DNA of 16,701 nucleotides from a virus, in the UHGV virus genome UHGV-1600828; one strand, 5' to 3'. Positions within the stretch are counted from its first letter, which is position 1. Each line of letters opens with the position of its first letter. Of the stretch, positions 10,872 through 11,645 are shown in pieces. The position numbers and the translations under genes were made by a program. The notes beneath the pieces were generated by a model, which worked only from the letters and a program-made list of their open reading frames with translations, was not told where the DNA came from and did not search any database.

Positions 10872-11645
10872 TCAAAAATTAGGTGAGTAACGGACCGGGG
10901 ACATAGCTCCTTTTTTTCTTAATTCATCTGGTATTTTTTTTCCAAGATAAAGATTTGCTATTTCAGGTGGGGCTTCTCGACCTTCAAAACCATAGCGAGA
11001 ACTTTGTGTTGCCTCAAAGTCCGGATCCTCGTCCCAGTATTTCATCGTAGGGAAATTTTCACGTGTTGATTTGAGCCATTTATCAGCAATGAAAACCCCT
11101 CGAACGATCCCCCTTACAGTAGCAAGAATGACTTCTGCTTGGCTGGCGCGAGAGACATTAATGCGCCAGCTAAATCGAACCGCATCATAAAGCTCTGAAT
11201 CCTTTGCACTTCTGTTAACGGAAATCATTAATGCTTTATGATGAAATGTTATGGTTTCGGGTTGATATGTTGCTATCAACTCTTTGACATGCGCGGCGCC
11301 GAATTCATTGCTGCCAGCACCATTCATGATATTCGTTAACCCAGGGTAGGCATCAATAAGTGCTGCTTCAACTTCGTACGCCGTCTTTTCATCAGTCATT
11401 CCATGTCGATGGATGACATGGATAACTTCAAGTCCCGCTAATCTTATTTCTCTAATTTGCTTTAGCTTGTTGCTCAGTAACTCGTCATCATCAGTCGCTG
11501 CCACTTCACCGCGCATATGGGCAAATACGCGGTTACCTTTGCCTTTCCCTACATAGAAGGTGCTTCCGTCCCTCGGATCAATCAATCGGTATACATACCA
11601 GCCAAGGTGTTCAATTACTCCAGAAGGAAACTCAGTAATATCCAT
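10872..11645 (-). CDS. GIY-YIG nuclease-motif protein, ~257 aa
   Basis: Minus-strand ORF. N-terminus …[29 protein letters not shown]… fits the GIY…YIG…R…H pattern. ORF-track start at 11696 is a TTG; first ATG (MDITEF…) is at 11643-11645. Weak RBS, so start is uncertain. Confidence 0.6.

Follow-up and report, generated by a model that had tools for sequence, protein, structure and literature searches.

Organization of the locus

The window analysed here, a 16,701-nt stretch of DNA recorded as virus genome UHGV-1600828, is E. coli DNA. Specifically, over positions 54–14791 it matches the chromosomes of strain 0H26 and related strains with 100% identity. Upstream of the gene of interest, genes of a Mu-like contractile tail (tape measure, gpN/gpP-like, V, gp46, J/gp47 and YmfQ) form a module, and behind it comes an invertible tail-fibre segment whose limits are the pix sites 8311–8330 and 10176–10195. 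The pix crossover sites share the core AAACC-NN-GGTTT and read AAACCTTGGTTT / AAACCAACGTTT. The anchor of the slot discussed below is a pinE-type serine DNA invertase on the plus strand (10257–10811), which matches Pfam Resolvase and HTH_7 and is named pinE in RefSeq. The e14 remnant of E. coli K-12 has the order jayE, ymfQ, stfP, tfaP, tfaE, stfE, pinE, mcrA, and the prophage of the window is the intact counterpart of this remnant.

Sister isolates 0H26, 0H25 and 0H23 match the window across position 10176, while 0H24, 0H18 and 0H15 match it only from 10176 onward. This pattern suggests an active Pin and opposite orientations of the tail-fibre segment in strains that are otherwise nearly identical.

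The gene of interest occupies 10872–11645 on the minus strand and encodes a protein of 257 residues from an ATG start. It lies 60 nt beyond pinE, and the two genes are convergent. The frame runs from stop to stop over 10872–11696 (minus strand), with a TTG at 11696, the first ATG at 11645 and the stop codon at 10872–10874. A reading of the sequence made without database searches (hereinafter, the sequence-only reading) had the place, size, strand and motif of this gene right, as judged by the ORF call and the match to PF22945 described below. It had left the start codon uncertain between the TTG and the ATG. The start is now settled as the ATG at 11645, because the published residue numbering (Y17, Y19, Y31 and Y127) fits exactly, the chains deposited in the PDB start with MDITEF behind a 5-residue tag, the PADLOC profile is aligned from residue 1, and the RefSeq model of the identical product (WP_000355484.1, "LEM-3-like GIY-YIG domain-containing protein") agrees.

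The sequence 5' of the ATG reads ...CATAGATATTGCAAA-ATG and has no strong Shine-Dalgarno element, as the sequence-only reading had also observed. Further upstream, a conserved 5' untranslated and promoter region (11646–11842, minus strand) is near-identical in three genomic contexts by alignment and blastn and diverges right after ~11842–11850. A consensus promoter and terminator scan of the gene's strand was empty there, with no strict sigma-70 consensus upstream of the gene; by eye, TTGTGA-17-TAATAT is a weak candidate promoter.

Identity of the gene

Its sequence identifies the gene behind the invertase as CMoRE/PD-T4-3, in an intact copy; this type IV restriction enzyme is already known. 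The protein matches the PADLOC profile PD-T4-3 (PDLC04031) over essentially its full length, residues 1–256 aligning with profile positions 1–255 of 256 (464 bits, E 2.4e-140), and it matches PHROG 5356 with an E value of 2e-143. In Pfam, residues 28–110 match the LEM-3-like GIY-YIG family PF22945 (54.2 bits, cut-off 27, E 2.1e-14), while the classic GIY-YIG family PF01541 stays below threshold (13.9 versus 22.6 bits). NCBIfam gave no match for the protein. A search of PDB sequences returned two proteins only, both titled "GIY-YIG domain-containing protein": one from E. coli O157:H7 (9U75/9U8D), with 253 of 257 residues identical (98.4%), and one from APEC O1 (9U7U/9U7Z), with 219 of 257 identical (85.2%), both without gaps. 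The entries hold crystal structures of PD-T4-3 under its new name, CMoRE (PMC12923530).

The reading frame is intact and colinear with both crystallised proteins, so that the pseudogene that the sequence-only reading had named as a refuting outcome was not found. The window protein differs from the O157:H7 enzyme at four positions, T51 (A in O157:H7), E55 (D), Q169 (K) and N197 (H), and is identical to it over residues 1–50 and 56–168. E55 and N197 also occur in the APEC O1 protein, while position 169 is K in both crystallised proteins. The function of the allele T51/E55/Q169/N197 is predicted from its 98.4% identity to the assayed O157:H7 enzyme. Both crystallised proteins have the same length, the same GIYxY-YIG motif, the acidic loop, Y127 and the single-gene organization of the window protein. 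Specifically, no partner gene is conserved: the flanking genes differ among the contexts of the window and 0H26, B-JRPT-4119, O157 17B6-2 and PSJ-23.

Domains and catalytic residues

The N-terminal GIY-YIG domain is encoded at 11301–11645 (minus strand; boundary approximate) and includes Y17, Y19, Y31 and R39 as well as the segment matched by PF22945 (residues 28–110), in which Y31 and R39 lie. The motif GIYxY-YIG is present as G15-W-Y17-V-Y19 ... F-Y31-V-G33; the definition of the motif and the roles of its three tyrosines (Y17, Y19 and Y31) are from PMC12923530. The sequence-only reading had named the absence of the catalytic Arg/Glu/Tyr arrangement as a refuting outcome. The tyrosines stand at the published numbers, while R39 and E92 are placed by spacing only. 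Specifically, a PDB sequence search with the N-terminal domain alone returned only CMoRE, with no UvrC or Slx1 to align, and the text of PMC12923530 does not give residue numbers for the catalytic Arg and Glu. Thus, R39 and E92 as the catalytic Arg and Glu, and E92 and N104 as GIY-YIG active-site positions, are putative assignments from the spacing of the GIY-YIG family.

Four consecutive acidic residues, D52-D53-D54-E55 (11481–11492, minus strand), form the autoinhibitory loop. The same place is occupied by DDDD in the O157:H7 protein and by DDDE in the APEC O1 protein. The GIY-YIG domains of UvrC (N-terminal) and LEM-3 (ANKLE1) belong to repair and resolution nucleases and, unlike CMoRE, have neither the extra tyrosine nor the 15-residue acidic insert nor a 5hmC-sensing domain.

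The C-terminal modification-sensing domain comprises approximately residues 125–257 (10875–11273, minus strand; boundary approximate). It differs from that of 9U75 only at Q169 (K) and N197 (H). Y127 is present; in the crystallised enzyme its main-chain oxygen bonds the 5-hydroxyl of 5hmC (PMC12923530). Other than CMoRE itself, Pfam, NCBIfam and the PDB hold no match for this domain, and no structural relatives are known (PMC12923530). The sequence-only reading had described the ~170 C-terminal residues as uncharacterised, whereas ~130 of them are a domain that senses 5hmC and 5ghmC and that holds 5hm-dCTP in crystals (PMC12923530).

Published activity and proposed mechanism

PD-T4-3 came to light when the E. 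coli pangenome was screened by functional selection (PMC9519451), and its origin from ECOR68 is as cited in PMC12923530; its native context is not named in the main text of Vassallo et al. CMoRE cleaves DNA that contains 5hmC or glucosyl-5hmC and, as a direct defence, stops T2, T4 and T6 (PMC12923530, PMC12366544, PMC9519451). Protection against these three phages amounts to ~5 logs and does not act through abortive infection (PMC12923530). DNA with C or 5mC is neither bound nor cut, so that T4(C) escapes while T4(hmC) is restricted (PMC12923530). Cleavage occurs at CN11/N9G, leaves 2-nt 3' overhangs and needs two modified sites (PMC12923530). Mutants of the GIY-YIG active site lose both defence and cleavage, while a "4A" mutant, in which the acidic loop is replaced by alanines, cuts ordinary DNA and is toxic; CMoRE alone is not toxic (PMC12923530). 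Activity has been demonstrated for the proteins of O157:H7, APEC O1, Klebsiella, ECOR68, NILS69 and Capnocytophaga. In vitro, the Capnocytophaga homologue, 48% identical, is active on modified T4 DNA and on Mu DNA that carries the Mom modification, and it leaves T4-GT7 DNA uncut.

The mechanism has been demonstrated on near-identical proteins, and we infer that it carries over to the allele of the window. The C-terminal domain would bind a flipped-out 5-hydroxymethylcytosine or glucosyl-5hmC. The enzyme would act as a dimer or tetramer that requires two modified sites, and its N-terminal GIYxY-YIG domain would cut with Mg2+ or Mn2+ in the published CN11/N9G pattern, again leaving 2-nt 3' overhangs. 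The acidic loop over the active site is expected to shut out ordinary and 5mC DNA, so that host DNA would be spared while incoming DNA of the T2/T4/T6 type would be degraded within minutes. The predicted outcome is direct defence rather than abortive infection. The source strain is accordingly predicted to resist T-even phages whose cytosines are modified, a point of practical use when phages are chosen for therapy.

The proposal of the sequence-only reading that a GIY-YIG nuclease serves here as defence cargo is borne out by the full-length PADLOC match, PF22945 and PDB 9U75. What it posed as an open question has had its answer in the literature since 2022–2026. Because publications cover the fold, substrate, cleavage pattern, autoinhibition and phage range, and because this copy is 98.4% identical to the crystallised enzyme, little is left to discover on the gene itself.

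Alternative explanations

The gene could be intact and yet a silent passenger, poorly expressed and without part in phage resistance. The weak translation and promoter signals upstream of the ATG would fit this reading, as would the APEC O1 gene, which defends only weakly from its own promoter (PMC12923530), and phage NIC06_P2, which is unrestricted in the native host NILS69 and restricted by plasmid-expressed PD-T4-3 in K-12. However, the genes of O157:H7 and Klebsiella are active from their native promoters (PMC12923530), and deletion of PD-T4-3 from NILS69 sensitises this host to Tevenvirinae phages. The sequence is also strongly conserved: among 5426 complete E. coli genomes, 838 carry the gene, with a nucleotide identity of 95–100%. 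We consider a silent gene very unlikely.

A self-spreading GIY-YIG homing endonuclease like I-TevI or Seg, with no defence role, is a very unlikely identity. The weak match of the GIY-YIG part to PHROG 314 "homing endonuclease" (E 0.0021) and the label "homing nuclease" that depositors gave to jumbo-phage homologues (Moabite, OBP and N1M2; 38–45% identity) point in that direction. Against it, the gene is intergenic prophage cargo with no intron, intein or interrupted-gene context, Pfam finds no NUMOD or IENR-type DNA-binding module in the protein, and the near-identical enzyme cuts 5hmC/5ghmC DNA only, has loose sequence needs and protects cells (PMC12923530).

An Eco29kI/Cfr42I-like type II enzyme with a GIY-YIG domain and a protective methyltransferase as its partner is practically excluded: it would belong to the same catalytic superfamily, and the copy in PSJ-23 does adjoin a cytosine methyltransferase and a type II REase, but that methyltransferase has an annotated REase of its own, no methyltransferase adjoins the gene in the window, 0H26, B-JRPT-4119 or O157 (its neighbours in the window are pinE and unannotated ORFs that lack a methyltransferase domain), and CMoRE leaves unmodified and 5mC DNA unbound and uncut and is non-toxic alone (PMC12923530). 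The sequence-only reading had suggested a profile check with Eco29kI/Cfr42I-like and homing enzymes among the candidates; neither identity applies, and the protein is a type IV, modification-dependent enzyme.

We therefore favour, with a probability of about 0.93, the reading that the gene is PD-T4-3/CMoRE in a variable cargo position behind the pin terminator hairpin and that it works as published.

Edges of the CMoRE cassette

The left edge of the cassette is a hairpin directly behind the pinE stop codon (10811–10852), identified by folding energy, z-score and conservation. Its minimum free energy is −22.5 kcal/mol (z −4.3) on the plus strand and −16.8 kcal/mol (z −2.95) on the minus strand. 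The hairpin is kept after pin genes with other cargo or with none, and it is also present at the CMoRE 3' end in PSJ-23, which has no pin there. It is probably a bidirectional terminator common to the convergent pinE and CMoRE genes.

A second, imperfect direct copy of the hairpin (11832–11875) forms the right edge in the window. The DNA common to three sampled contexts extends from the hairpin to ~11842, a length of ~1.03 kb that corresponds to the gene and 197 nt upstream of it. Beyond the second copy, homology to the DNA behind the single hairpin of a McrBC-type genome extends over ~190 nt, and homology to the equivalent DNA of a genome whose slot is empty extends over ~75 nt. The simplest reading of this arrangement is that the cassette came in by recombination at the hairpin. 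Movement of the cassette by Pin through pix-like end sites was also considered and is unsupported: the hairpin flanks have only "AAACC" in common with the pix sites.

Both hairpin copies are similar to the stem-loop at the 3' terminus of CssrB (Rfam RF02799), a chromosomal sRNA of Shigella, with 24.5 and 20.8 bits against a gathering score of 76. This similarity hints at a possible origin of CssrB as a fragment from the 3' end of a pin-family transcript.

In strains B-JRPT-4119 and O157:H7 17B6-2, the right junction of the cassette is instead a tRNA-like 3' fragment (6934–7012 of L003, and the same place in L004). The fragment has an anticodon arm, a long variable arm and a T arm, and it scores 21.5 bits with the tRNA-Sec model, which is below the Rfam threshold. 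It may resemble serU. It is probably the remnant of a prophage attachment site; a search with ARAGORN for an attachment site at the right edge of the cassette found no tRNA in the window, L003 or L004.

Variable cargo behind pinE

The sequence-only reading had stated that e14 holds McrA in the position of the present gene and had suggested cargo exchange among defence genes. The first point is borne out by alignment. The window and K-12 e14 share 88.8% nucleotide identity through pinE up to its stop codon, where similarity is lost. Past the stop codon comes mcrA (plus strand) in K-12 and CMoRE (minus strand) in the window.

The second point gains support from the different cargo that the same post-pin position carries in other genomes. 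Junction-spanning queries (coverage at least 80%) were counted among the 5426 complete E. coli genomes. Behind pin, CMoRE was found in 570 genomes, McrA in 330 and an unannotated 325-aa ORF in 7; in a further 235, a pin remnant is followed by an AAA_5 ATPase and a PF10117 McrC protein (McrBC-like). Since the CMoRE gene is present in 838 genomes and its post-pin junction in 570, about a third of the copies lie elsewhere. One such copy, in strain PSJ-23, lies in a lambdoid prophage without pin, beside an unrelated pair of cytosine methyltransferase and type II REase. One sampled genome carries small ORFs with a DUF2335 protein behind pin, and in one other the slot is empty. In P2-type phages with a related invertase, the tail sheath gene comes straight after.

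McrA, also known as RglA, restricts T-even phages with non-glucosylated hmC. The e14 enzyme of K-12 (EcoKMcrA) occupies the same post-pinE position in an e14-family prophage and, like CMoRE, is a single-polypeptide type IV enzyme directed against modified cytosines. Other than that, the two differ. K-12 McrA has an unrelated HNH fold, matching PF01844 and PADLOC mREase_IV, while the window protein has no Pfam match to the HNH family; the genes lie in opposite orientation, and there is no sequence similarity between the proteins. In contrast to McrA, CMoRE also accepts glucosylated hmC and ignores 5mC. CMoRE and McrA have their genomic position in common, not their ancestry.

The McrBC-like pair (strains EC19 and A10) lies behind a pin pseudogene and the same post-pin hairpin. 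The ~190 nt of downstream flank that these genomes have in common with the window correspond to positions 11836–12030. The pair is annotated as modification-dependent restriction; unlike CMoRE, it consists of two genes and, according to its annotation, would be a GTPase-driven translocating nuclease of the PD-(D/E)xK type. The three frequent occupants of the slot are unrelated in fold, and all are type IV, modification-dependent enzymes or are annotated as such.

Together, McrA, CMoRE and the McrBC-like pair follow pin in at least 1135 of the 5426 complete E. coli genomes. We tentatively propose, at slightly less than even odds, that the ~40-nt hairpin behind pin in e14/Rac-type prophages is a hitherto undescribed hotspot that has repeatedly captured modification-dependent nucleases, the cassettes entering by hairpin recombination; this proposal is drawn from ten sampled post-pin contexts, two P2-type controls and the four junction counts, which are not a systematic survey. 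The window would then be a compound case, in which two hairpins bracket CMoRE and are followed by a second cargo unit with a stand-alone LmuA-like nuclease of the PD-(D/E)xK type (488 aa). A literature search found no paper describing a defence hotspot adjacent to pin or an invertase. The recurrent post-pin hairpin site for type IV restriction cargo is the sole part of the present results for which no description was found, and it is a modest addition. With three unrelated type IV systems alternating next to a tail-fibre invertase, the combination of pin and hairpin would be a simple anchor from which more cargo could be mined, for instance the family of the 488-aa nuclease.

Neighbouring cargo and phage homologues

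A small ORF (12048–12569, plus strand) lies between the two cargo genes. Its start in RefSeq is equivalent to position 12180, and this shorter form begins MKYCYLIILSLTISSAQA, which is signal-peptide-like. Other than a marginal PHROG match, no family match was found for it.

The second cargo unit contains the 488-aa ORF (12885–14351, plus strand), which is AT-rich (31–35% GC). Searches of Pfam, NCBIfam, PHROG and PDB sequences returned nothing for its product, which is a member of a conserved ~485-aa family that spans Proteobacteria and Bacteroidota. The invariant residues of this family, E40, D74 and Q88-C-K90, make up a core of the PD-(D/E)xK type. The closest structures to its AlphaFold model (mean pLDDT 83.5) are the Lamassu nuclease LmuA and MspJI, and both similarities are weak (TM ~0.25). 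Homologues sit on prophage remnants and integrase islets, and no LmuB/LmuC-like partner was seen in three sampled contexts of the family. The protein is a plausible candidate for an undescribed stand-alone defence nuclease.

In strain CX15, the segment with pinE, CMoRE and the 488-aa ORF is present on the chromosome and also on a separate 18,368-bp record (NZ_CP081745.1, 7131–11745). The extra record may be a circular fragment that was excised, or else an artefact of the assembly.

The window departs from 0H26-type genomes at 14791. The junction at this position is present in no complete E. coli genome of the collection, and the right part is never contiguous with the rest there. This part encodes an IetA-like AAA+ ATPase (15255–16241, plus strand; PADLOC IetA, E 5.5e-77; NCBIfam IteA, 221 bits against a cut-off of 510). 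It is followed by a 139-aa ORF (16250–16669, plus strand), which has no family match and is no recognisable IetS protease; the window ends 32 nt further on.

Full-length homologues of CMoRE with 38–45% identity are encoded by lytic jumbo phages, among them Serratia phage Moabite (NC_048792.1, 6406–7161), Pseudomonas phage OBP (NC_016571.1, 158703–159449) and N1M2, where depositors labelled them as homing or GIY-YIG endonucleases. These phages may use the homologues against rival phages with modified DNA.
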